Shown here: piece by piece, positions 16,005-27,635 of the stretch
Numbering within the stretch: the first letter of the stretch is position 1
Layout of the letters: each line of letters begins with the position of its first letter
Origin: an uncultured Candidatus Saccharibacteria bacterium
GTDB taxonomy: Bacteria; Patescibacteriota; Minisyncoccia; Phycocordibacterales; Zambryskibacteraceae
Assembly: GCA_964349945.1 (NCBI GenBank)
Contig: CAYGIH010000001.1
Span: 297,218 to 361,217, forward strand
Direction: 5' to 3'
DNA length: 64,000 bases
Program-made: the position numbers and the translations under genes
The notes under the pieces: generated by a model
Told to the model about the DNA's origin: nothing
Databases searched by the model: none
The model's input: the letters and a program-made list of their open reading frames with translations, nothing else

Positions 16005-16268
16005 TTATTCGAGCGAATTAGAGATGTATTTTACAATGTGATGAAGATTAGTTGAAAATTTATAGAACATCTGCAAGCTTCTATGCTCTTTGTCTACAAT
16101 ATCGGCTCCATACAAAACAGCCAGATGTTTTGACGTGGCCTTGAATGACAACTTTATTTCATCAGCAATTTCGCTTACAGTCATTTCCCTTCTCTTTTTT
16201 AAACATCTCACAATCTCAAGTCTGCGTTTGTTCGCCAAAGCTTTCAAAATTCTTTCTAAATTTTTCAT
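16005..16268 (-). CDS. ArsR/SmtB family transcriptional regulator
   Basis: ALANKRRLEIVRCLKKRREMTVSEIADEIKLSFKATSKHLAVL is a winged-HTH ArsR signature. Confidence 0.8.
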   Translation of the reverse strand: MKNLERILKALANKRRLEIVRCLKKRREMTVSEIADEIKLSFKATSKHLAVLYGADIVDKEHRSLQMFYKFSTNLHHIVKYISNSLE

Positions 16269-16941: not shown

Positions 16942-17181
16942 TCACTTTGTCAATCCAATATATTTGAAGCGGGGTTGGGTGACGCCGTCGCGGGTGACTG
17001 TCTCAAGGAACATGCTGAGTGGGCGGACCCACATTGTGTTCCCTTCCTCACCTTTCACTGGGTCTGGATGAACATAAACAACCATTTTTTCTAAAGTCTC
17101 ACTATCTAATGCAACCCCAATCACCTCAACTTTCATCCCCTTAAAATGTTCGTATAACCCGAGTTTTATTTCTGAATTCAT
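16942..17181 (-). CDS. DUF1653 domain protein, copy 1
   Basis: LGLYEHFKG…SETLEKMVVY…WVRPLSMFLETVTRDGVTQPRF is a DUF1653-like pattern. It is a paralogue of 18454..18669. Confidence 0.65.
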   Translation of the reverse strand: MNSEIKLGLYEHFKGMKVEVIGVALDSETLEKMVVYVHPDPVKGEEGNTMWVRPLSMFLETVTRDGVTQPRFKYIGLTK

Positions 17182-17597
17182 ACTAAATATTTATTTATTA
17201 GTCCACTTATATCATAATCAAAATTAGTTCCAACATTTACAAATTCTAGTGGTAATTCAATAAATTCAAATATTTCTTTCTTCTCTTTATCACTATCTTT
17301 TCTATCATTTCTCATATGCGATGATCCGTTTAATTCGATTGCCAAAATTGGGTGAAAAAATGAATTACAAATTAAAAAATCAATATGTTTAGGAAGAATC
17401 TCATTTCTGTGAGAGTAATACCCCCTGCCACTAGTTGTTTCAATGATATCTGCCACTCTCATTTTTGGAAAAACATAAAAACCATCTGGTAATTGTTTTA
17501 ATAATTCTAGATAAAAAACTTCTTCACTTTTCTCCATTACGCTTTCGCGCTTTTTAAATTCGGATGATTTATCTAAGCTAAAATATTTTTTAAACAT
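17178..17597 (-). CDS. DUF2726-like protein (tentative)
   Basis: 139 aa containing KMRVADII…HIDFLICN…PILAIELNGSSH, a pattern recalled for DUF2726. Confidence 0.4.
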   Translation of the reverse strand: MFKKYFSLDKSSEFKKRESVMEKSEEVFYLELLKQLPDGFYVFPKMRVADIIETTSGRGYYSHRNEILPKHIDFLICNSFFHPILAIELNGSSHMRNDRKDSDKEKKEIFEFIELPLEFVNVGTNFDYDISGLINKYLV

Positions 17598-18108: not shown

Positions 18109-18381
18109 TTATTCTAGTTTTTTGCAAAATACTAGAATAGATTCGGCGCGAGGTGTCAGCTTATGTAATACGTTATTACCCTTATTCCTTTTCAAAACCA
18201 ACCCAGCAATGGCCATTTTGCGAATATGATCTGAAGCATTCTGATAACCAATTTTTAATTTCTCTGATATGTCTTCCACTGATAATTCTGGTTCATTTTT
18301 CAGTAATTCTAATATTTGTATTCTCCTATGATTCGCAAAACCTTTTACTGCCCTTTCTATCCTTCTATAATTTGTTGCCAT
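18109..18381 (-). CDS. ArsR/SmtB family transcriptional regulator (second copy)
   Basis: FANHRRIQILELLKNEPELSVEDISEKLKIGYQNASDHIRKMAIAGLV is a winged-HTH ArsR signature. Confidence 0.8.
   Translation of the reverse strand: MATNYRRIERAVKGFANHRRIQILELLKNEPELSVEDISEKLKIGYQNASDHIRKMAIAGLVLKRNKGNNVLHKLTPRAESILVFCKKLE
18110..18139. promoter_or_regulatory. Operator-like palindrome B1 (tattctagttttttgcaaaatactagaata)
   Basis: Near-perfect 30-bp palindrome with a TTTTGCAAAA core. It overlaps the arsR-2 3' end and lies 70-100 nt upstream of mscL. Confidence 0.45.
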
Positions 18382-18416
18382 AAAATATTTTTATATTTTA
18401 AAATACCTCCTTAATT

Positions 18417-18448
18417 CTATTACGTAATTTTGCAAAAAACTAGAATAG
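18417..18448. promoter_or_regulatory. Operator-like repeat B2 (ctattacgtaattttgcaaaaaactagaatag)
   Basis: Same TTTTGCAAAA…ACTAGAATA half-site as B1, with the other arm replaced by ctattacgtaa. It lies upstream of the arsR-2 start. Confidence 0.45.
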
Positions 18449-18453
18449 ATATA

Positions 18454-18669
18454 CTAAGAAAGGGGTTTGAAGCGGGGTTGGGTGACGCCGTCGCGGGTGA
18501 CAGTCTCGAGGAACATACTGAGTGGGCGGACCCAGAGAGCTTCTTCACCAAAGTGTTTGTAGATGACCATTTTCTCCAATGTCTCACTGTGTTGAGCAAA
18601 CCCAACCACTTCGTATTTCCCTCCTTTGAAATGCTCATACAACCCAAGTTTTATTTCTTCATTATTCAT
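18454..18669 (-). CDS. DUF1653 domain protein, copy 2
   Basis: MNNEEIKLGLYEHFKGGKYEVVGFAQHSETLEKMVIYKH…WVRPLSMFLETVTRDGVTQPRFK. About 70 nt of DNA in the 3' half are near-identical to copy 1. Confidence 0.65.
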   Translation of the reverse strand: MNNEEIKLGLYEHFKGGKYEVVGFAQHSETLEKMVIYKHFGEEALWVRPLSMFLETVTRDGVTQPRFKPLS

Positions 18670-18702
18670 ATCTGTATTTTACATCATTTATAATTTTTAA
18701 AT

Positions 18703-18732
18703 CTATTACGTAATTTTGCAAAATACTAGAAT
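18703..18732. promoter_or_regulatory. Operator-like repeat B3 (ctattacgtaattttgcaaaatactagaata)
   Basis: Third copy, located upstream of DUF1653 copy 2. Confidence 0.45.
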
Positions 18733-18810
18733 AAGGACTATTTAACTATTCGCCTATTCCCTCCTTCGTATAAAACTACGGACGGGCGCGGCGCGCGAAT
18801 TAGAGAAGAG

Positions 18811-18879
18811 AAAATGCATCACCTCATACTTCCCTCCCTTAAAATGTTCGTATAACCCGAGTTTTATGGATTGATTCAT
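18811..18879 (-). pseudogene. 5' fragment of a third DUF1653 gene
   Basis: Encodes MNQSIKLGLYEHFKGGKYEV…. 33 nt are identical to the 5' end of copy 1. It is truncated at a junction with the aactattcgc…gcgcgaattagag repeat. Confidence 0.5.
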
Positions 18880-18881
18880 AA

Positions 18882-19742
18882 TTACCATATTAAATCATTT
18901 AATATGCCGTTCTCAATCATGTTTAGATTAAAAACATATTCATTATGATTATATGTCTCTTCGAGGGGTCTGAGTGCTGTCTCCCAGCCTTTCCCATCGG
19001 TAATCCAAATAAAATCAATGTTTTGCTTTCTTAAATCTGTATATAGACTCTTGAATTCGCCACATACAGCTTTCAGTTTTGATCCTCCCCCATTATAAAA
19101 ATTTACTTCTAAAAGTTTGATTTTATTATTTTTGGGATTATATATTGCGAAATCAAAACTTCTGCTAGATTTATCTACTTCAACGATTAACCCCCATTCT
19201 TCCTTTATTTTTTTAGCATTAACCTGTTTAAGATAAGCTAAACCTTTGTCATTACAAAATTTAATAATATTAGCTTCAGTTATATCTTCCATTAGAGTTC
19301 CTTCTCTGTTTTTTCTGCCATTACTATCTAAACCAACCTCAACTCCAATAACGTAATCAACAAGATTTTTTATACCATCTTCATTAAATAATTTTGCTAG
19401 TCCAGTATTTTTTATAAAATCATAGTATTCTTCAGCTTTTTTATTAGCATTGTTATTAAAATTGAAAAACATGCTTTTTTTAGTTTCTAAATCAAAAAGC
19501 TCAATATTTTTTTCACGTATCGCAAGAAGTGCTGGTATAGCTCTTATAATATCTGGATTTGACGAATAAAGTTTAATAAATTCTTCTTTTAAATTTTTCT
19601 TTCCTAAAAGATAATTCAATTTATTTAGAATTATTTCTAACTCTGAACTATGAGAAAATACTTTATTCCAATTAACAAAATAATCCCATGTTTTAATAGA
19701 ATTTTTGAAGGTATTAACTAAATAATTAAAATCTTTTTTCAT
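18882..19742 (-). CDS. Type II restriction endonuclease, DpnII/MboI (GATC) family
   Basis: 286 aa. LVDYVIGVEVGLDSNGRKNREGTLMEDI, LLEVNFYNGGGSKL and FIWITDGKGWE align with recalled R.DpnII segments (LVDYVTGVEVGMDTNGRKNRTG…, LIEVNFYSGSGSKL, FMWITDGQGW). Confidence 0.8.
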   Translation of the reverse strand: MKKDFNYLVNTFKNSIKTWDYFVNWNKVFSHSSELEIILNKLNYLLGKKNLKEEFIKLYSSNPDIIRAIPALLAIREKNIELFDLETKKSMFFNFNNNANKKAEEYYDFIKNTGLAKLFNEDGIKNLVDYVIGVEVGLDSNGRKNREGTLMEDITEANIIKFCNDKGLAYLKQVNAKKIKEEWGLIVEVDKSSRSFDFAIYNPKNNKIKLLEVNFYNGGGSKLKAVCGEFKSLYTDLRKQNIDFIWITDGKGWETALRPLEETYNHNEYVFNLNMIENGILNDLIW

Positions 19743-19743
19743 G

Positions 19744-21339
19744 TTATTTTGTAATATTATTTTTAAGATAATTCCATGTTTCTATACTTTTTGTAAAAAT
19801 TTTATTTTCATTCAGATTTTTATCTTTCCTCATTTGCTCAATATAATATTTTTGTAAAATATTAAATATTTCATTTATATCTGTTTCGCTGTTTGATTTT
19901 AAATAATAGAGACCAGCTATAATATGAAAGTCCATATGCCTAAGCATGCTTTTTTTGTTTTTATTTTTTTCACTTTTAATTTTTTTATCTACCAAAATTC
20001 CAATATCACATAATTCTATTATCCTGTTTGAATTAGTTTTGATTAGCTTTTGAACTTTTTCATATTCTCCGCGTATATCATTTTCAAAAATACTTTTTCT
20101 TGCATTTTTTGCTTGAGCTGGTTGCATATAGAATGCAGCATAAGACCATTGAAAAAATTTAATATATGGAATATTCATAATTTTTTTATCATGAAGTGAG
20201 CCTTTCCTGTTATAAATATATTTTCCTTTGCTTTTATTAAAAATAAAAATCTCCAATTCCTTTTGAAATAAATCATTTGTCCTAAGATCTTCCACTCTAA
20301 CAGCTTTTTGCGTATTAGATGATTCACAAATTCTATCAATCAACTGTTGGTCAACTGCTTGTATAAGCTTACATACAACCTTCGCATTTTTAAAATGAAT
20401 ATCTTTAGGGTTATTTTTATATAAACTAGAAAGATTACCAATAGTTTGCGCCCCATTAACAACTTGTGGCTCAATAATTTTATATTGCCTACTTTCACTT
20501 ATTATTTTTTTAGCAATAATCGTAATACCATTATGAAAAAGAAAAAACTTTTTAGTTTCATTTTGAATTGTCTTCAAAAGACCGTTTTGAAATTTAAAGT
20601 TTTTATGAGGAATCCTCACATTACTTGAAAATAAATCCTTATTATCATCAATATGTTTCTGATAAAGCTTTAGTAAGTCTAAAACGTTTACATTTACTAT
20701 TATTTCAGAGTACTCTTTTCTATCATCAATGGGCCACATTTTTGTTGCCGAGTTTACTGATAAATTCCATTCTGACAAAAAATCTATCTCAAGTAATTTA
20801 GAAATAACTTCATCAAGTGTTAGCAATGTTAAATTAACATTCGCTATATTTTTTATATCCTGTAACATAGCATCAACTTGCTTCCCAAACTTTTTAGGAT
20901 ACTTTTTTCTTATTATAAAAAGATTAATGACTTTGCGCTTATTTTGAGAAGAATGCCATTGTTTTATTTGCTTTTTTAAACGTTCACATATAGAAAAATC
21001 TTTTGGTTTTGCCTTTAAAAAATTTCTTATAATGCTTTCTCTAAAATTCTTTAGATCATTTGTTCCTAATCCCTCTTCAATTTTAAAATCAAATAGATCT
21101 AAAGACTCCTTAGCGAACACAACAGCGTCTACACCGTCATCAAAAATCCCATCTGTTATTATTAATTTAAAATCTTCATCTGTATGTTCTTTTTTATAAA
21201 TTATATTTAAACAAGTAATTATTAGAGAGTATGCCTTTTCACTAGAACCATCAAATCCTTTGCTTTGAAAATACTGAACAAGTCTTCTTGCTTGCGTTGT
21301 GTTTTTATCAATCAATGATGTCAATATCTCATTCTTCAT
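19744..21339 (-). CDS. AIPR-like abortive-infection protein (tentative) embedded in the R-M operon
   Basis: 531 aa. The N-terminal ITDGIFDDGVDAVVF is a Mrr-like DGxxDxG motif. The internal FHNGITI and VVNGAQT motifs resemble AIPR family hallmarks recalled from memory. Gaps of 1-3 nt separate it from the flanking MTase and REase genes. Confidence 0.55.
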   Translation of the reverse strand: MKNEILTSLIDKNTTQARRLVQYFQSKGFDGSSEKAYSLIITCLNIIYKKEHTDEDFKLIITDGIFDDGVDAVVFAKESLDLFDFKIEEGLGTNDLKNFRESIIRNFLKAKPKDFSICERLKKQIKQWHSSQNKRKVINLFIIRKKYPKKFGKQVDAMLQDIKNIANVNLTLLTLDEVISKLLEIDFLSEWNLSVNSATKMWPIDDRKEYSEIIVNVNVLDLLKLYQKHIDDNKDLFSSNVRIPHKNFKFQNGLLKTIQNETKKFFLFHNGITIIAKKIISESRQYKIIEPQVVNGAQTIGNLSSLYKNNPKDIHFKNAKVVCKLIQAVDQQLIDRICESSNTQKAVRVEDLRTNDLFQKELEIFIFNKSKGKYIYNRKGSLHDKKIMNIPYIKFFQWSYAAFYMQPAQAKNARKSIFENDIRGEYEKVQKLIKTNSNRIIELCDIGILVDKKIKSEKNKNKKSMLRHMDFHIIAGLYYLKSNSETDINEIFNILQKYYIEQMRKDKNLNENKIFTKSIETWNYLKNNITK

Positions 21340-21341
21340 AC

Positions 21342-22148
21342 TTAGGATTTTTTATTTTTCAAATTCTTATCTAATTCCTCATATCTTTTTATAGATACAT
21401 CTAAGTACTTTTTTTCTAAGTCTACACCTATAAACGTTCTTCCGTACAAGTGAGCCGCCACCCCAGTAGTTGAGCTACCTGTAAATGGGTCTAAAATAAC
21501 ATTTCCTTTATTTGTACTAGCCAATACAATTCTCTTCAATAAATCTTCTGGTTTTTGGGTAGGATGCTTCCCAAATTTCTTTTCAATTGGTTTTGGTGTC
21601 CCCATTGACCAAACTGAGCGCATTTGAAGGCCTGGTTTTTTTAACGCATCTTCTGGCCATGTTCCATTCTTCATCAAATCATAGTTAAATATGTGTTTTG
21701 CCTTTTTATCTTTTCTGGCCCAAATAAGAGTTTCATGACTTGCTGTGAAAAATCTACAACTTAAATTTGGTGATGCATTTGGTTTAAACCATGCAATATC
21801 ATTCAACACGTGAAATCCCGCAACTTGTAGGGCAAAACCACATTGATAAATTGAATGATATGTTCCACTTATCCAAATTGTCCCACTTGGTTTTAATACC
21901 CTATGAACCGCTTTTATCCATTCAAGATGGAATTCAAAATCTTTTTTTAGTCCATTGCTTTTATCCCAATCTCCTTTATGAACGCTGACCATTTTCCCCG
22001 CATGAACAGTAAAACCTCCATTTGAAAGCAAATATGGAGGATCTGCAAAAACCATATCAACAGAATTTTCTTCCATATCAGCCAAAATATCCAAACAATT
22101 TGCTTGATAGAGGGTAAAATTTTTATCTTTGTAATATGGTTTCTTCAT
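21342..22148 (-). CDS. Beta-class N6-adenine DNA methyltransferase, DpnA/M2.DpnII-like (GATC inferred)
   Basis: N-terminal DMVFADPPYLLSNGG (motif IV, DPPY) and C-terminal VILDPFTGSSTTGVAA (motif I). There is extended similarity to the recalled DpnA sequence (…VLKPSGTIWISG…GKHPTQKPE.LL.RI.LAST…). Confidence 0.9.
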   Translation of the reverse strand: MKKPYYKDKNFTLYQANCLDILADMEENSVDMVFADPPYLLSNGGFTVHAGKMVSVHKGDWDKSNGLKKDFEFHLEWIKAVHRVLKPSGTIWISGTYHSIYQCGFALQVAGFHVLNDIAWFKPNASPNLSCRFFTASHETLIWARKDKKAKHIFNYDLMKNGTWPEDALKKPGLQMRSVWSMGTPKPIEKKFGKHPTQKPEDLLKRIVLASTNKGNVILDPFTGSSTTGVAAHLYGRTFIGVDLEKKYLDVSIKRYEELDKNLKNKKS

Positions 22149-22553
22149 CTATCTATTCAAATAAGTAATAGTTAACTGCAATACTGTTGCAAAACTGACC
22201 CAAAGGAGATATGGGATGTTTATATAAGCAATCCAGCGAGCGATTGGGTAGATGACAACTAAAGCCCAGATGAGAGTACCTAGAACCAAAAGGATATCTA
22301 CGGCGGCGAGGTAGTTGTTCTTCAAGCCGAATTGGAAGTAAGTGAAAGAGAAGTTGAAAATGAGGTTGAGGATGAAAGGCAGAGCGACAGCGAAAGGAAT
22401 CTGTTTTTGGAAAAGGAGGATGAAAACCTTGCCGAATGAGATGGCTATTAATATATATAAAATTGGCCATACAATTCCAAAGATTGATGGATCAGGTGAC
22501 CATTGCGGTTTAATCAGCGATTGATATTCAATTTGAGTTTCATTCATGGCCAA
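22149..22553 (-). CDS. TspO/MBR family membrane protein (short form)
   Basis: IKPQWSPDPSIFGIVWPILYILIAIS parallels the TspO LKPxWxPPxWVFPLAWTSLY motif, and the C-terminal NIPYLLWVSFATVLQL resembles VPYLIWATAATGLN. It is the first gene of the R-M operon, with a 0-nt gap to the MTase. Confidence 0.65.
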   Translation of the reverse strand: MAMNETQIEYQSLIKPQWSPDPSIFGIVWPILYILIAISFGKVFILLFQKQIPFAVALPFILNLIFNFSFTYFQFGLKNNYLAAVDILLVLGTLIWALVVIYPIARWIAYINIPYLLWVSFATVLQLTITYLNR

Positions 22554-22649
22554 TTTTAATGTCTCCCGATTTTGTGCCGACTTCGCTTTCGAAGTCGAGC
22601 ATCCACGATACTATAAATAGTACCGGGACAAAATCGAGGACCCTCGATT

Positions 22650-22892
22650 TCATAAAAATTTTAATCTTTCGAGCGACTTCCTGCTTTTCCAGGATTTAAG
22701 CTGTAATTCCCTACGTCTTGCTTCCACGCTTGTATTATATTCTTCTTTATAAAATAAATCCCATGGCATCGAACTCTTCGTAGACTTCACTTTTCCTGAG
22801 TTATGAAGTCTAAGTCGCTCGTTTATATCATTGGTGTAACCAACATAATACTTACCATTTTTATTAGATTTTAAAATATATGTGTAATACAA
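22650..22892 (-). CDS. GIY-YIG nuclease domain protein (small, stand-alone)
   Basis: YYTYILKSNKNGKYYVGYTNDINERLRLHN matches the GIY-x10-YVG…R…HN pattern. Confidence 0.75.
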   Translation of the reverse strand: MYYTYILKSNKNGKYYVGYTNDINERLRLHNSGKVKSTKSSMPWDLFYKEEYNTSVEARRRELQLKSWKSRKSLERLKFL

Positions 22893-23049
22893 AATTAAAA
22901 TTTAATGAAATCGGGGCACACGGGTCCAAAGAGATACGCCGGTGGTGCCCAAGTGGGTTTGATGAGTTCGCTGAAGTAAATTTTAGTACTATCCATATAA
23001 AGATTATCTTACACTCATTTAGAGGCTTAAACTAGGCTTGGTTTGTCTA

Positions 23050-23078
23050 TTGACAAACCAAGCTGTTGGGTGTATAAT
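23050..23078 (+). promoter_or_regulatory. Consensus sigma70 promoter (TTGACA, 17-nt spacer, TATAAT)
   Basis: ttgaca at 23050-23055, a 17-nt spacer, then tataat at 23073-23078. It lies about 45 nt upstream of the RBS GGAGG and ATG at 23125. Confidence 0.65.
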
Positions 23079-23124
23079 ATGGGTAGAACAGGTGGTCGCA
23101 GTCCCCTACGAATACGGAGGCACC

Positions 23125-23517
23125 ATGGGTACCTTGAACAGGAAGTTTGGGAAGTTCTTGGTCGGTCTCGGATGCTCGCTCTTGTGGGCATGCGGTGCTG
23201 ACACCAGCGACTATCCCTTCCAGATTGTTGCGAATTCGCACCTCTCGGAAGCTGGTCGCTTGGACATCGGTCCAAAGGCAGTGAACCTCGGCGCCGGTGC
23301 CAAGGCCAACATGGACCCGATTCACCTGCCCGTCGATGACTGCCACGGCACCTCGACCGGTCCGTGCGGCAACTACTGGTACGGCTCTGTGACCTTCACC
23401 ACCACGAGTGGTGAGTACATCACCGAGTACTGCCAGTTCTACAGCCGTCGGCAGGGCTCGATTGACATCTTCCGCGACAGCAACAAGAAGCTCCGACTCT
23501 CATGCCAATCCGGCTGA
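23125..23517 (+). CDS. Small secreted/lipoprotein-like protein of 130 aa (GC-rich island)
   Basis: MGTLNRKFGKFLVGLGCSLLWACGADTS is a signal peptide with a lipobox-like LWAC. A Cys-rich mature part follows. RBS GGAGG precedes the ATG and a terminator follows the stop. Confidence 0.5.
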   Translation: MGTLNRKFGKFLVGLGCSLLWACGADTSDYPFQIVANSHLSEAGRLDIGPKAVNLGAGAKANMDPIHLPVDDCHGTSTGPCGNYWYGSVTFTTTSGEYITEYCQFYSRRQGSIDIFRDSNKKLRLSCQSG

Positions 23518-23540
23518 GAACAGGACTTCAACACCATACA

Positions 23541-23571
23541 CCCCGTTCCGATTCTGTCGGAACGGGGTTTT
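23541..23571 (+). terminator. Rho-independent terminator
   Basis: CCCCGTTCCGA-ttctg-TCGGAACGGGG followed by TTTTCAC. Confidence 0.65.
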
Positions 23572-23611
23572 CACTTGCAAATTTTTTCATCCTAAACACT
23601 TCGTGTCGGAC

Positions 23612-23640
23612 AAAGAAAAAGCTCGAGGGTTACTCGAGCT
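23612..23640 (-). terminator. Rho-independent terminator for the NMO gene
   Basis: AGCTCGAG-taacc-CTCGAGCT (minus sense) followed by TTTTTCTTTG. Confidence 0.6.
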
Positions 23641-23650
23641 GTTGTTGGGT

Positions 23651-25051
23651 TTAACCGCGGAGATACCGGATGGCATCCACTGCAGTGTAACTACTGTATT
23701 CATCCTGCATGAGGTGAGGAAGGAAACTCACATCATCACCCATGGTGAAAACTGGAAGTTCACGCGGATTACCCAGACCCGCGGCTGAAAAGAGTCCGTT
23801 GCACAGACACCTTACCCCGAGAGTATCTTCAATCTTGCCACCCTTGCGGAGATAGTCTGCTTCTGGTTCGGCCGAGCAACGAAAGCCAATCTTCCCATTC
23901 GGCATCTCATACGGATACACTAGCGCCGAACGATCACAAACTCTTGGCCTTGATTCGTACACTTGCGATTCTGATTGTGTACCCGCAAGTTGGACAACTT
24001 TGAACGGGAAGCCAGTTGGTGAAGCACATGGGTCAGTCAGAATCTGCAATTCTCCAAGAAACCCAAGTCTCCGAATCTTGTTGCGATACATCCGATCCAT
24101 CCCCGAATCATCGGAGAGTGCAAAGATGGAGCCCGCTTGGATACCAACTGCGCCGAGTGACTGTGCGCGAGCGAGCCCAGAGGGCGAAGCGAGCGACCCA
24201 CCAATCCAGAATGGAATCCCTAGATCGATGAGCTTTTGGAAATTCACTTCATCTCGTTCTCCGTACACGGGCTGACCCAAAACATCGAACACACCCTTCT
24301 TGCGTGGAGGAGCGTTGTGTCCTCCAGCAGTCGGCAGTTCGACGACGATGCCCTGCATACTATCTGGACCGAGCTTGGACTTCATGAGTGAAGCCAACAC
24401 ATCAGTAGAGACAATGGGCAGAAAGCCTGGACGCCGAAGCTCGCTCGGATATGATGCTCCAAAGAAAGCCTTCGGATCAAAACTAATCGTCCGAGTCCCC
24501 TCCTTGCTACCCTCCACAGAAACTCGATACTCTGGATTCCTACCGGAAGCCAACGCATCGAGCACCCCAGGGATTTGGAGCGTGATGCCCGCACCCATGG
24601 TGATGAAGTCTGCTCCTGCGAGCATCGCACCAGTGAGGTGATAGATGTGAGGAATCTGAAGCTTCTCCAGATAGTTCACACTTATCGGACCTTCGTGGCC
24701 CTCCTTGGCCAACCACACGAGTGCGAAGCTCGCAGCCACGGTGAGTTCAATGAGATCCCGTCGAGACTCCAAAGTGAACGCGGGTACTCGCTTGAAATTC
24801 GAGTTTGGGACCTTGCCACCTTCGATGAAATACTTCCTCAGAACCCTATCCACTACTCCTTGGAACGGAAACGTGGCCAGTGCACGACGATAATGCCCTC
24901 CTTCATCTCCGAGTTGGAGAATATGAGCGAGCACACGTTCTGCACCAGTGCACGACACTGTACCTAGTACACCAGCTTCTGAACAAACCTTCGCGAGGTG
25001 GGGGCTCGAGATGTAGATCCCCATGCCCCCTTGTATGATGGGTCTCTGCAT
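23651..25051 (-). CDS. Nitronate monooxygenase / 2-nitropropane dioxygenase family FMN oxidoreductase (GC-rich)
   Basis: 466 aa. N-terminal IIQGGMG…SS.LAKVCSEAGVLGT and downstream AGADFITMGAG and TAGGH are NMO/FabK-like motifs. Confidence 0.75.
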   Translation of the reverse strand: MQRPIIQGGMGIYISSPHLAKVCSEAGVLGTVSCTGAERVLAHILQLGDEGGHYRRALATFPFQGVVDRVLRKYFIEGGKVPNSNFKRVPAFTLESRRDLIELTVAASFALVWLAKEGHEGPISVNYLEKLQIPHIYHLTGAMLAGADFITMGAGITLQIPGVLDALASGRNPEYRVSVEGSKEGTRTISFDPKAFFGASYPSELRRPGFLPIVSTDVLASLMKSKLGPDSMQGIVVELPTAGGHNAPPRKKGVFDVLGQPVYGERDEVNFQKLIDLGIPFWIGGSLASPSGLARAQSLGAVGIQAGSIFALSDDSGMDRMYRNKIRRLGFLGELQILTDPCASPTGFPFKVVQLAGTQSESQVYESRPRVCDRSALVYPYEMPNGKIGFRCSAEPEADYLRKGGKIEDTLGVRCLCNGLFSAAGLGNPRELPVFTMGDDVSFLPHLMQDEYSSYTAVDAIRYLRG

Positions 25052-25161
25052 TTCGAACTCCTTGTGAAAGAACTATGGTTGTAGTACGTCTATATAAATG
25101 ATAGCAGATTTAGAAAGAATGAGATTCTATCTATATATCTGCAATCACGTATACTGAGTTT

Positions 25162-25419
25162 ATGGACACACTACTTCAGTCACAAATATTCTTCTTTATT
25201 TCATCTGTTGGGTTTGTTTTGTTGTGGATTTTCCTCGCTGTCTTTCTCTACTATCTAATCCGCACCACTCGGGCGCTCTCTAGAATAGTAGAGAAGGCCG
25301 AAAAGGATATCGAAGCAATCGGCGACACCACTAGAGAAGTGATTGAAGAAATGCAAGACAGTACAGTGTTTAAATTTTTGTTCGGAAGCAAAAGAAAACG
25401 AAACAAGAAATCAAAATAA
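25162..25419 (+). CDS. Small membrane-anchored protein, hypothetical
   Basis: 85 aa with an N-terminal TM segment and a charged coiled-coil-like tail. Confidence 0.4.
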   Translation: MDTLLQSQIFFFISSVGFVLLWIFLAVFLYYLIRTTRALSRIVEKAEKDIEAIGDTTREVIEEMQDSTVFKFLFGSKRKRNKKSK

Positions 25420-25439
25420 TTATTAATTAAATTATAAAT

Positions 25440-25703
25440 ATGAAGAAAAAAATGTCAGCCGGCAAGATAGTTGCCATCGGCGCAGGTGTGGCCGCAGTCG
25501 GAGCAGGTGCTTATGCTCTACTCGGACCCAATGGGAAGAAGAATCAAAAGAAAGCGATGCGAGCAATAAAAAAAGTTGAGAAGAAAGTCGTAAAGGTAGC
25601 AAAGAAAGAGCTCAAGAAGAATGAAAAGCTCGTAAACAAAGGCAAAACCCTCGTAAACAAGGGTAAGGCTGTTGTAAAAAAGTTAGAGAAGCAAATTAAG
25701 TAA
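25440..25703 (+). CDS. Lys-rich small protein, hypothetical
   Basis: 87 aa. A Gly/Ala N-terminal stretch is followed by KK-rich repeats. Confidence 0.4.
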   Translation: MKKKMSAGKIVAIGAGVAAVGAGAYALLGPNGKKNQKKAMRAIKKVEKKVVKVAKKELKKNEKLVNKGKTLVNKGKAVVKKLEKQIK

Positions 25704-25706
25704 TCA

Positions 25707-26363
25707 TTAAACCGCCTTATCTGCAAAGACTACAAGTCTGTTGGGGCGGTTTTGTGTTTTAGCATCCCATTTACCTGAACAGGTGATGAGGTTTAAGTGA
25801 GCCTTGCCATCGTTTGAAGAAAATACTTCTGTGGCATCTGCATCATTGGCCATGATTTTTGTCTTCATTACTATAAAAGTGACTGTCACGCCATTTTCAT
25901 CTATCACTTTTATTTTGTCCCCTATTTTTATCTTGGATAGGTTATCAAAAACCGCTGGAATTCCATTCTTCCAACCAAAATGTCCTGCAATGGTCGCACT
26001 ACCTATGTCCCCTGGTTTGGGTCCGTACTTGTACCATCCTGTGTTTATAGGTCCAGCTGGAGAATCCATGGCTCCTTCCTTGGTTAGACCTAGTCGCTCG
26101 ATGGGTGCATCTACATTTATACTTGAAATGATTAGACGAGAAAGTTTTGGTTTGGAAGTATTTGCCACTATGACCTTCGCTTCCTCCGTACTGCTCTTGG
26201 TTATAGTGAGAGGTGTGGTGGTTGCTTCTACGACTTGAATTACATTTGCGGCTTGAACAAGATCTTTGTTTTGTTCGACAAATTTATCTGCATTAATCCA
26301 GAGAACGATAACCCCAACACAGACTAGTAATAAGACCCATTTTAGTGAGATAAGAGTCTTCAT
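25707..26363 (-). CDS. Sortase (transpeptidase)
   Basis: N-terminal TM segment, ATIAGHFGW (sortase AGH motif) and HLNLITCSGKW (TLxTC catalytic Cys). Confidence 0.8.
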   Translation of the reverse strand: MKTLISLKWVLLLVCVGVIVLWINADKFVEQNKDLVQAANVIQVVEATTTPLTITKSSTEEAKVIVANTSKPKLSRLIISSINVDAPIERLGLTKEGAMDSPAGPINTGWYKYGPKPGDIGSATIAGHFGWKNGIPAVFDNLSKIKIGDKIKVIDENGVTVTFIVMKTKIMANDADATEVFSSNDGKAHLNLITCSGKWDAKTQNRPNRLVVFADKAV

Positions 26364-26378
26364 AGATGTTTTGTGAGA

Positions 26379-27635
26379 TTAAACTAACTTCTTCTTATCA
26401 ACTAGAACTATCACCAAAGACAAGAGAGTGAAGATGCCAAGATAAGTAAGGAATACTGAGGCGAAGGAAGCTTCCTCTGTGTATAGTCCAGTATTTGGAA
26501 GAGCGGGTATAAAGTAAGGAGGAGGTACAAAGGTTGTTGTTGCTATAGAAGTAGTCGTAGCTGTTGGAGTAGTGTAAGTGGTAACTGTATTTCTTCGGTG
26601 TCCACCCAGTGTAGGGGCAGCAATATCATCATTTGTAACTGTACATTGATAATTTCCATCTGCTGAAAGTGTAATATTTCCATTTGCATCACAATCTCCT
26701 GCAAATGATTGAGTGTAATTTACATCTGAAGTTTCTGTTATTGCATAAGTTGTAGCCGCAAAGTTATTTAGTATTCCTGAAACAACAGCTGTCGCACCTA
26801 CAAACAATGGGAAGTCTGAAACTATTTTTGTTCTACCGCTGTCATTAATAACCGTCTTAGTAATTGTTAATGAGGCTGGGTTAGAACAAGAAGGCACAGT
26901 GATAGTATTTATGGCTGCGATTCCACCGTTTGAAGTAACTGTTCCTCCATAAGCAAGTGCTCGTCCTACCCAATCAACCGTATCTCCGATAGTGATTCCT
27001 GCTGCATCTAGAACTGTTCCCTTGAATGTTGAATTCGCACCAAGAGTTGTGGCTGCAACTGGAGTCCAAAAGACATCACAAGCCGAAGCGCCGTTTAGGA
27101 CAACTGAAGTATTGGCACCTGTAGTGACTGCTCCACCTGTTGATTTGAAAATATAAGTTCCAGATCCATTTAGAGTGATGGAACCGTTGTCAACAATATT
27201 CATGGCTCCTGCTCGATAGTAACAACCTGGAGGAAAGTGCCCTGGTGTTCCTCCATTTATGACTATGGCATCCAAGTTGCCAACTTCACCAATATTTGTA
27301 CAACTTAAGAGATATTGGTTGTTTAGATTAGCTAGAGCAGCATTTTGGGCAATACCGGCAGCTGTCCAAGCGGCATTGTTTACTTCTGTAGTACCGTTTG
27401 AAGTATTGATTATCCCTAGTCCTGCTATAGAAGAATAGCCGAGAACTCCTAAGGTATTACCTACCACACCAGTGATGGTAGTCGTGGCATTGTGTTGAAA
27501 CAAGTTAGAAATGAGGCCAAAGGTGTTGGCTGTCCCTAGAGAAGGAGTTGTGGCTGCAAGAGCTCTATTTGGCCCTATAAGAGAGAATAGAGCAAACATT
27601 ACCAAACTTGGGATTATATAGTTAATTTTTTTCAT
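26379..27635 (-). CDS. LPXTG-anchored surface protein with an ice-binding-like (DUF3494) N-terminal domain
   Basis: Signal peptide, then LGTANTFGLISN…TTITGVVGN (DUF3494-like). A Thr-rich stalk follows, and the C-terminus has LPNTG, a hydrophobic segment and KKK. Confidence 0.8.
   Translation of the reverse strand: MKKINYIIPSLVMFALFSLIGPNRALAATTPSLGTANTFGLISNLFQHNATTTITGVVGNTLGVLGYSSIAGLGIINTSNGTTEVNNAAWTAAGIAQNAALANLNNQYLLSCTNIGEVGNLDAIVINGGTPGHFPPGCYYRAGAMNIVDNGSITLNGSGTYIFKSTGGAVTTGANTSVVLNGASACDVFWTPVAATTLGANSTFKGTVLDAAGITIGDTVDWVGRALAYGGTVTSNGGIAAINTITVPSCSNPASLTITKTVINDSGRTKIVSDFPLFVGATAVVSGILNNFAATTYAITETSDVNYTQSFAGDCDANGNITLSADGNYQCTVTNDDIAAPTLGGHRRNTVTTYTTPTATTTSIATTTFVPPPYFIPALPNTGLYTEEASFASVFLTYLGIFTLLSLVIVLVDKKKLV

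Follow-up and report, generated by a model that had tools for sequence, protein, structure and literature searches.

A putative GATC restriction-modification cassette with an AIPR/AbiU-family gene in a swappable slot of a Patescibacteria genome

Results

In a 64-kb stretch of contig CAYGIH010000001.1 from an uncultured Candidatus Saccharibacteria bacterium (hereafter the window), four minus-strand genes follow one another with gaps of 0, 2 and 1 nt. They encode a TspO-like protein, a beta-class N6-adenine methyltransferase (MTase), an AIPR/AbiU1-family protein and a DpnII/MboI-family Type II restriction endonuclease (REase) (Table 1). The latter three genes form a 3.3-kb cassette and are probably co-transcribed. 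A preliminary description, made from the sequence alone, had reported this gene array together with its family assignments and motifs. Its coordinates proved exact, the four proteins matched PF03073, PF01555, PF10592 and PF04556, respectively, and those of the cassette matched the PADLOC profiles MTase_II, AbiU and REase_II. The motifs read from the translations are also all present, namely DPPY first and FxGxG last in the MTase, and DGxxDxG, FHNGITI and NGAQT in the AIPR protein. The G+C content (GC) is 0.39 for both the window and the TspO gene, 0.34 for the MTase gene and 0.26 for each of the AIPR and REase genes. A contig from an independent Logan assembly (ERR3094292) is 100% identical to the window over 27339..18838 (8.5 kb), thus covering all four genes. 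This contig stops 44 nt beyond the REase stop codon, so the right-hand junction of the cassette is supported by the window assembly only.

Table 1. Genes and features of the cassette locus (positions in the 64-kb window)
Feature	Coordinates	Strand	Details
TspO-like gene	22553..22149	minus	134 aa from TTG; 132 aa from ATG at 22547; PF03073 2.3e-27
Beta-class N6-adenine MTase gene	22148..21342	minus	268 aa; PF01555 1.5e-57; PADLOC MTase_II 6.6e-100
AIPR/AbiU1-family gene	21339..19744	minus	531 aa; PF10592 6.8e-31; PADLOC AbiU 7.5e-29
DpnII/MboI-family Type II REase gene	19742..18882	minus	286 aa; PF04556 2.1e-91; PADLOC REase_II 7.3e-96
Swappable defence-island slot	18670..22148	minus	three-gene cassette and DUF1653 5' fragment
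Orphan 22-codon DUF1653 5' fragment	18811..18876	minus	begins 5 nt past the REase stop; tblastn 82% over 22 aa to the native DUF1653

In the MTase, the DPPY motif (residues 36-39) lies ahead of DPFTGSSTTG (residues 220-229), which is the order of the beta class. The top plasmid matches of this protein are the second MTases of Dam-MTase-REase cassettes, including LlaDCHIB of the Lactococcus plasmid pSRQ700 (52% identity) and a Staphylococcus plasmid protein (50%), in line with its earlier designation as DpnA-like. Matches from Sinorhizobium and other Alphaproteobacteria, which would be expected for a CcrM-type enzyme, reach ~42% identity. The MTase belongs to a 363-member cluster (90% identity) and is 88% identical to a Paludibacter MTase, which is the sole MTase of a cassette consisting of a helix-turn-helix (HTH) gene, the MTase and a DUF6996/7 gene. 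The Paludibacter cassette and others with this MTase alone suggest that the lineage routinely acts as the sole protector. The Dam-like DpnM had been noted as missing, and indeed no D12/Dam-type MTase was found in the window by tblastn with the Dam-like protein of a related locus (L008); the sole PF02086 signal in the window was a sub-threshold match on the beta-class MTase. The MTase is a DpnA/LlaDCHIB-like enzyme, the only one of the cassette, and it is predicted to methylate the adenine of GATC. For DpnA of S. pneumoniae, activity on single-stranded DNA has been documented (PMC3573125).

The REase matched PF04556 at full length (profile positions 1-277 of 278; 306.5 bits against a cutoff of 23), which places it in the DpnII family as proposed. 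It is 42% identical to LlaDCHIC of pSRQ700 over 285 aa (3e-80), with an intact open reading frame (ORF) and conserved LlaDCHIC sequence blocks, and 70% identical to the REase of the L008 cassette, which consists of Dam-like MTase, AIPR, DpnII and second MTase genes. A sequence search of the PDB with the REase gave no meaningful match. LlaDCHI is GATC-specific, and the window REase is predicted to cut unmethylated GATC. The preliminary description had suggested checking whether GATC is under-represented. The window has 118 GATC sites where a Markov model predicts 211, an observed/expected ratio (O/E) of 0.56 (z about -6.4), and GATC is strongly depleted, more so than any other of the 256 tetramers. 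GANTC, with an O/E of 1.03, is not depleted.

The AIPR protein, which is neither an MTase nor a specificity subunit, matched PF10592 over residues 237-494 (108.5 bits, cutoff 25) and the PADLOC AbiU profile over residues 89-504. It carries the motifs TDGIFDDGVDA (residues 62-72), FHNGITI (268-274) and NGAQT (295-299). In a confident AlphaFold2 model (predicted local distance difference test score 86.7), residues ~1-190 model as a FokI-like PD-(D/E)xK nuclease domain (D71 ... D84-x-K86), residues ~237-430 model as a ParB/DUF262-like AIPR domain containing FHNGIT and NGAQT, and the C-terminus is a helical bundle. The putative catalytic motif D71 ... (D/E)84-x-K86, together with D63 and D67, is conserved across the AIPR clade, and distant AIPR proteins also show a similar N-terminal DGxxDxGxD...QxK motif. 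The N-terminus had first been called Mrr-like; the motif behind that reading is there, but the domain is nearest to the FokI cleavage domain and not specifically to Mrr. The ParB/DUF262-like domain is nearest to that of BrxU (GmrSD family), and SspE and DndI are domain relatives. When the full model was compared with the PDB by Foldseek, only weak matches (E > 0.1) to FokI and N.BspD6I domains were returned, and neither Foldseek nor a profile sequence search found an AIPR structure in the PDB.

This model agrees with a published account of AbiU1/AIPR/COG1479, in which a ParB-superfamily domain is joined to other nucleases and has links to restriction-modification (R-M) systems (PMC3632139), and with a 2026 report that AbiUi superimposes on FokI (PMC13064643). 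In the latter study, lactococcal AbiUi by itself gives phage resistance, and AbiU is counted among the abortive-infection families (PMC13064643); lactococcal AbiU is the only family member for which such a phenotype is known. Judging from the model, the AIPR protein of the window is a putative nuclease. A HEPN domain was considered and found no support, as the R of an Rx4H motif varies within the family and none of the matches listed has a HEPN fold. A weak match to the NCBIfam MzaE model was also seen (5.5e-08; 31.8 bits against a cutoff of 1050).

Close homologs of the AIPR protein (27-48% identity) come nearly all from Patescibacteria. To survey this clade, ~20 distinct loci (each designated by L and a number) were annotated by tblastn, using as queries the window proteins and neighbour proteins that had been typed by Pfam and PADLOC. 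A phage-borne cassette was rejected, as no close clade member is present in IMG/VR, where AIPR proteins are only 24-28% identical. The order MTase-AIPR-REase occurs in nine of the ~20 loci (the window, L008, L014, L090, L091, L092, L094, L095/L177 and L096), and in four more (L004, L009, L011 and L012) the AIPR gene adjoins an MTase-REase pair in another order, so that AIPR is linked to an R-M pair in 13 of ~20 loci. An MTase-like gene alone lies near AIPR in L086 and, more loosely, in L013. The commonest form of the cassette is Dam-like MTase, AIPR, REase and second MTase, the Dam-like partners being 47% identical to LlaDCHIA. In L096, this form comprises Dam, AIPR, DpnII and beta-class MTase genes, which is the complete classical DpnII gene set plus AIPR. 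That the arrangement is conserved across the clade supports the combined R-M and AIPR module envisaged by the preliminary description. The picture of an AIPR gene inserted into a DpnII cassette did not hold: MTase-AIPR-REase is the conserved order and is probably ancestral in the clade.

The REase position of these cassettes is taken by three unrelated families, which are DpnII, DUF6996/DUF6997 and a 204-aa protein, the latter two also matching PADLOC REase_II profiles. On a neighbour-joining tree of the AIPR proteins, built without support values, the REase partner types are interspersed. The DUF6996/DUF6997 proteins (~255 aa; L004 7576-8340, L012 5083-5853, L168 5821-6591) are encoded directly after beta-class MTases 70-88% identical to the window MTase and matched the PADLOC Type II REase profile at 1.3e-32. 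They are probably an uncharacterised REase family of the same specificity, presumed to be GATC. The other protein, of 204-213 aa and without a Pfam family, occupies the REase slot of Dam-AIPR-X-MTase cassettes (L014 7607-8221, L090, L092, L094, L095 and L177) and matched PADLOC REase_II PDLC03457 (3.2e-28), identifying it as a predicted third REase family that alternates with DpnII. Sequence searches of the PDB with the DUF6996/7 protein and the 204-aa REase gave no meaningful match. AIPR and GATC-type adenine MTases are the constants of the clade, and the REase is its variable.

The window REase is nearest to that of L008, whereas the L008 AIPR protein is only 32% identical to the window AIPR protein, and the window MTase is nearest to the DUF6996/7-linked lineage. 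The window cassette is itself a mosaic, in which a gene of the sole-MTase lineage appears to have replaced the usual Dam-like gene ahead of AIPR. The GC step at the MTase/AIPR boundary (0.34 to 0.26) fits such a replacement of the Dam-like gene.

The TspO protein aligned to profile positions 19-144 of 145 of PF03073 and lacks the first transmembrane helix (TM1). Gene callers and more than 100 homologs take the ATG at 22547 as its start. The gene was considered as a truncated pseudogene and this was rejected, because thousands of Patescibacteria homologs as a rule have this form, with 131-132 aa and no TM1. More than 7,900 TspO homologs were found, the best 120 of which are Patescibacteria proteins of 131-142 aa.

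The relative L174, whose TspO is 83% identical, is syntenic with the window, with Ice_binding, sortase, DUF948, NMO and TspO genes on one side and DUF1653 on the other. Between the TspO stop codon and DUF1653, L174 carries a Type III-like Mod (587 aa), a Res (752 aa) and a DUF559 gene. Nucleotide homology to L174, 89% in the 3' part of TspO, stops at window position 22147, 2 nt beyond the TspO stop codon, and restarts at 18671, at the start of DUF1653. In other relatives, TspO is followed by Bro-N, HNH, MazG and SLFN-helicase genes, and further relatives have a Type ISP enzyme and a Dam-AIPR-REase-MTase cassette within a few kb of TspO. TspO and the AIPR cassette are less than 4 kb apart in the window, L008, L011 and L094 and 4.7 kb apart in L177; the position of TspO relative to the cassette varies (upstream or downstream, 0-4.7 kb), with no position-fixed linkage. 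TspO, which had been taken as the leading gene of the operon, is thus shown by this synteny and homology break to be the conserved native flank of a swappable slot, and not part of the module. Given the variable content of the slot beside a conserved TspO, the recurrent proximity is best read as a defence-island hot spot beside a core gene. As the cassette begins at the MTase ATG without an upstream spacer, transcriptional read-through from TspO into the cassette is plausible.

Further observations concern the flanks of the slot. The 5' part of TspO contains a 459-bp segment (22916..22458, minus strand) that is absent from L174. The segment holds an 80-aa GIY-YIG gene (22892..22650, PF01541 4.5e-18), two hairpins and a substitute TspO 5' end that restores the ORF, and the orphaned native 5' end persists at 23002..22913 (~30 codons, 88% nt identity to L174). 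The segment resembles a small selfish element of the GIY-YIG type, one that repairs the gene it targets. On the same side, an NMO-like gene at 23651-25051 has a GC of 0.53 against a background of 0.39, and its protein is 52% identical to the L174 counterpart compared with 62-88% for the flanking genes, which suggests a separate replacement or transfer event beside the defence slot.

On the other side, DUF1653 is present as the native gene (18669..18454, 90% nt identity to L174), as a second full copy (17181..16942) and as the fragment next to the REase gene (Table 1). The fragment shares a 33-nt identical run with the second copy and is interpreted as a recombination scar. Two ArsR-type HTH genes lie at 18381..18109 and 16268..16005, and together with the three DUF1653 copies or fragments they suggest that a segment was duplicated or that recombination left scars here. 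A DUF2726 protein (139 aa, 2.5e-18) is encoded at 17178-17597, with the MscL gene on one side and the second copy of DUF1653 on the other, 1.3 kb from the cassette; the DUF2726 family is often related to nucleases. An Rfam scan of the window detected only two tRNAs, neither close to the locus.

Discussion

We propose, with a probability of roughly 0.75, that the locus is a horizontally acquired anti-phage cassette in which a GATC R-M system is joined by AIPR as a second-layer, DNA-targeting effector, placed in a recombination hot spot between TspO and DUF1653. In the first layer, the DpnA/LlaDCHIB-like MTase would methylate the GATC adenine of host DNA and the DpnII-family REase would cut unmethylated GATC in incoming DNA. 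In the second layer, AIPR would act against phages that escape GATC restriction. Its N-terminal FokI-type PD-(D/E)xK domain would cleave DNA, presumably governed by the ParB/DUF262-type domain as a nucleotide-switch and DNA-reading module, as in GmrSD/BrxU, SspE and DndI.

Several parts of this arrangement resemble known systems. Like the DpnII, LlaDCHI and MboI cassettes, the locus has a DpnII-family REase and a DpnA-type beta-class MTase tightly packed on one strand. Unlike them, it has no Dam-like dpnM and carries AIPR between the MTase and REase genes, so that it differs from the classical dpnM-dpnA-dpnB operon in both the presence of dpnM and the uninterrupted M-M-R order. The related Patescibacteria cassettes hold all DpnII parts plus AIPR in a changed order (Dam-AIPR-REase-MTase2). 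With AIPR/AbiU1 proteins, the window protein shares the Pfam and PADLOC matches, the modelled N-terminal FokI-like nuclease (as in AbiUi, PMC13064643), the modelled central ParB-superfamily domain (PMC3632139) and the linkage to R-M (PMC2292703, PMC3506569). It is only distantly similar to AbiU in sequence (Table 1), and no AbiU2/HEPN partner accompanies it. The system to which MzaE belongs likewise includes an AIPR-family protein; the neighbours of AIPR in the window are MTase, REase, TspO and DUF1653. As in GmrSD/BrxU, SspE and DndI, a ParB/DUF262-like fold appears to be joined to a DNA nuclease domain beside a DNA-modification system (PMC9646914).

The novelty claimed in the preliminary description was overstated. 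AIPR/AbiU1 genes within R-M operons have been described since 2008 (PMC2292703, PMC3506569, PMC3632139), and the resemblance of AbiU to FokI was published in 2026 (PMC13064643). Published AIPR linkages stress Type III systems and MORC/cytosine-MTase contexts, whereas the partner in the window is a Type II GATC system in Patescibacteria. Two elements are mildly new, namely the Dam-AIPR-REase-MTase arrangement, which is conserved in Patescibacteria while its REase is swapped, and the defined TspO-DUF1653 slot. In all other respects, the R-M system is an ordinary one of Type II and its accessory gene is of a known type.

Three observations weigh against our proposal. First, GATC is depleted to a similar extent (O/E 0.50-0.57) in the relatives L174-L176, whose slot has no GATC system. 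The depletion is thus lineage-wide and is no proof that the window cassette is active, which weakens its use as such. Lineage-wide avoidance of GATC, whatever fills the local slot, implies long-term pressure from GATC-specific restriction. Second, among solved structures the MTase is most closely related to CcrM (1.9e-55), which recognises GANTC, so the GATC specificity of the MTase rests on the partner genes and on the 52% identity to LlaDCHIB. Third, four clade members (L002, L007, L088 and L100) have no detectable R-M neighbour, indicating that AIPR has no strict need of one. A promoter and terminator consensus scan of 18300-23200 gave no more sites than shuffled sequence, and no terminators.

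Of the other explanations, one holds that AIPR is a self-sufficient nuclease that only travels alongside R-M genes, for instance as a Type IV-like enzyme that attacks modified phage DNA in the manner of GmrSD/BrxU, with no coupling between the two. Their adjacency would then stem from clustering in defence islands and from joint transfer. The kinship of its ParB/DUF262-like domain to BrxU, the clade members without R-M (L002 being an HTH-AIPR pair beside a resolvase) and the generic nature of the hot spot, which holds different systems in relatives, all speak for such independence. Random clustering, however, does not explain why AIPR keeps the same place between M and R in nine loci, with codons that overlap or abut, nor does it account for the retention of AIPR during REase replacement. 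We therefore consider full autonomy possible but, on balance, doubtful.

A guard mechanism, or 'second strike', such as that of PrrC and EcoprrI, is in our view unlikely. The R-M proteins would hold AIPR inactive until a phage anti-restriction factor released it, whereupon nucleic acid would be degraded and the infection aborted. The placement of AIPR between M and R with gaps of 1-2 nt is like that of prrC inside the EcoprrI locus, where a second-line or suicide nuclease gene lies between modification and restriction genes in consistent genetic linkage, and the R-M enzyme linked to PrrC keeps it silent, whereas a phage protein that inhibits this enzyme activates it (PMC1484252). The linkage to R-M in 13 of ~20 loci and the classing of AbiU as abortive infection (PMC13064643) also accord with a guard. 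Against it, AIPR was kept while its REase partner changed between three unrelated families. This is hard to square with silencing through a specific protein-protein contact on the REase, although AIPR could still be silenced through the MTase or depend on DNA methylation. Solo AIPR genes occur in the four loci without R-M, and AbiUi acts alone in Lactococcus (PMC13064643). Moreover, PrrC combines an ABC-ATPase with an RNase and is always found with one Type I family, whereas AIPR is modelled as PD-(D/E)xK plus ParB-like and is linked to Type II systems with interchangeable REases, so that the analogy is functional only.

It is also conceivable, though improbable, that AIPR is a reader of the GATC N6-methyladenine self mark written by the adjacent MTase, much as SspE and DndI read phosphorothioate, and that this mark licenses its FokI-like nuclease to nick or cut unmarked DNA, the REase being a replaceable second cutter. 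This would accord with the constant partners of AIPR, which are GATC-type adenine MTases of the Dam-like or DpnA-like type, while the REase varies. It would also accord with its domain relatives SspE and DndI, which are modification-sensing nucleases dependent on a host mark (PMC9646914).

That the MTase is instead a CcrM/HinfI-like GANTC enzyme, with the DpnII-family gene inactive or protected by a Dam elsewhere in the genome, is very unlikely. Besides CcrM being its best solved relative, the MTase matched the NCBIfam CcrM model at 4.2e-70, but the score of 236 bits is far under the 830-bit cutoff. The best characterised relatives are DpnA-type MTases within GATC cassettes, and the same lineage is paired with DpnII REases in L011 and L096. 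Nor do the intact REase with its LlaDCHIC blocks and the contrast between undepleted GANTC and GATC as the most depleted tetramer fit GANTC specificity, which was rejected in view of the partner genes, the GANTC O/E and the sub-threshold CcrM score. The notion that TspO works as the first gene of the operon, in which it would be a membrane sensor tied to defence, is scarcely credible: it draws on the 0-nt gap to the MTase start and on the recurrent proximity to AIPR cassettes, and is countered by the varying position of TspO, by the Type III-like R-M or unrelated genes that fill the slot in its relatives, by the end of L174 homology 2 nt past the TspO stop, and by the native GC and very large, highly conserved Patescibacteria family of TspO.

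The AIPR/AbiU family, with its links to R-M systems, is among the most widespread of those termed 'Abi', although to our knowledge neither the trigger nor the biochemical mechanism of any of its proteins is known. The clade described here is a natural experiment, in which one AIPR lineage is found between GATC MTases and three unrelated REase families. That AIPR is kept while REases are swapped argues for a functional over an accidental linkage, and points to the MTase or the methylation mark, rather than the REase, as the relevant partner. The 3.3-kb cassette is compact enough to be cloned directly for a comparison of the guard, reader and independent-layer models, and the TspO-DUF1653 interval provides a defined defence-island slot in Patescibacteria, in which phage defence is little studied. 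If AIPR did prove to read the mark, the cassette would become a 'writer-reader-cutter' system of three parts, with the classical REase as an exchangeable accessory.

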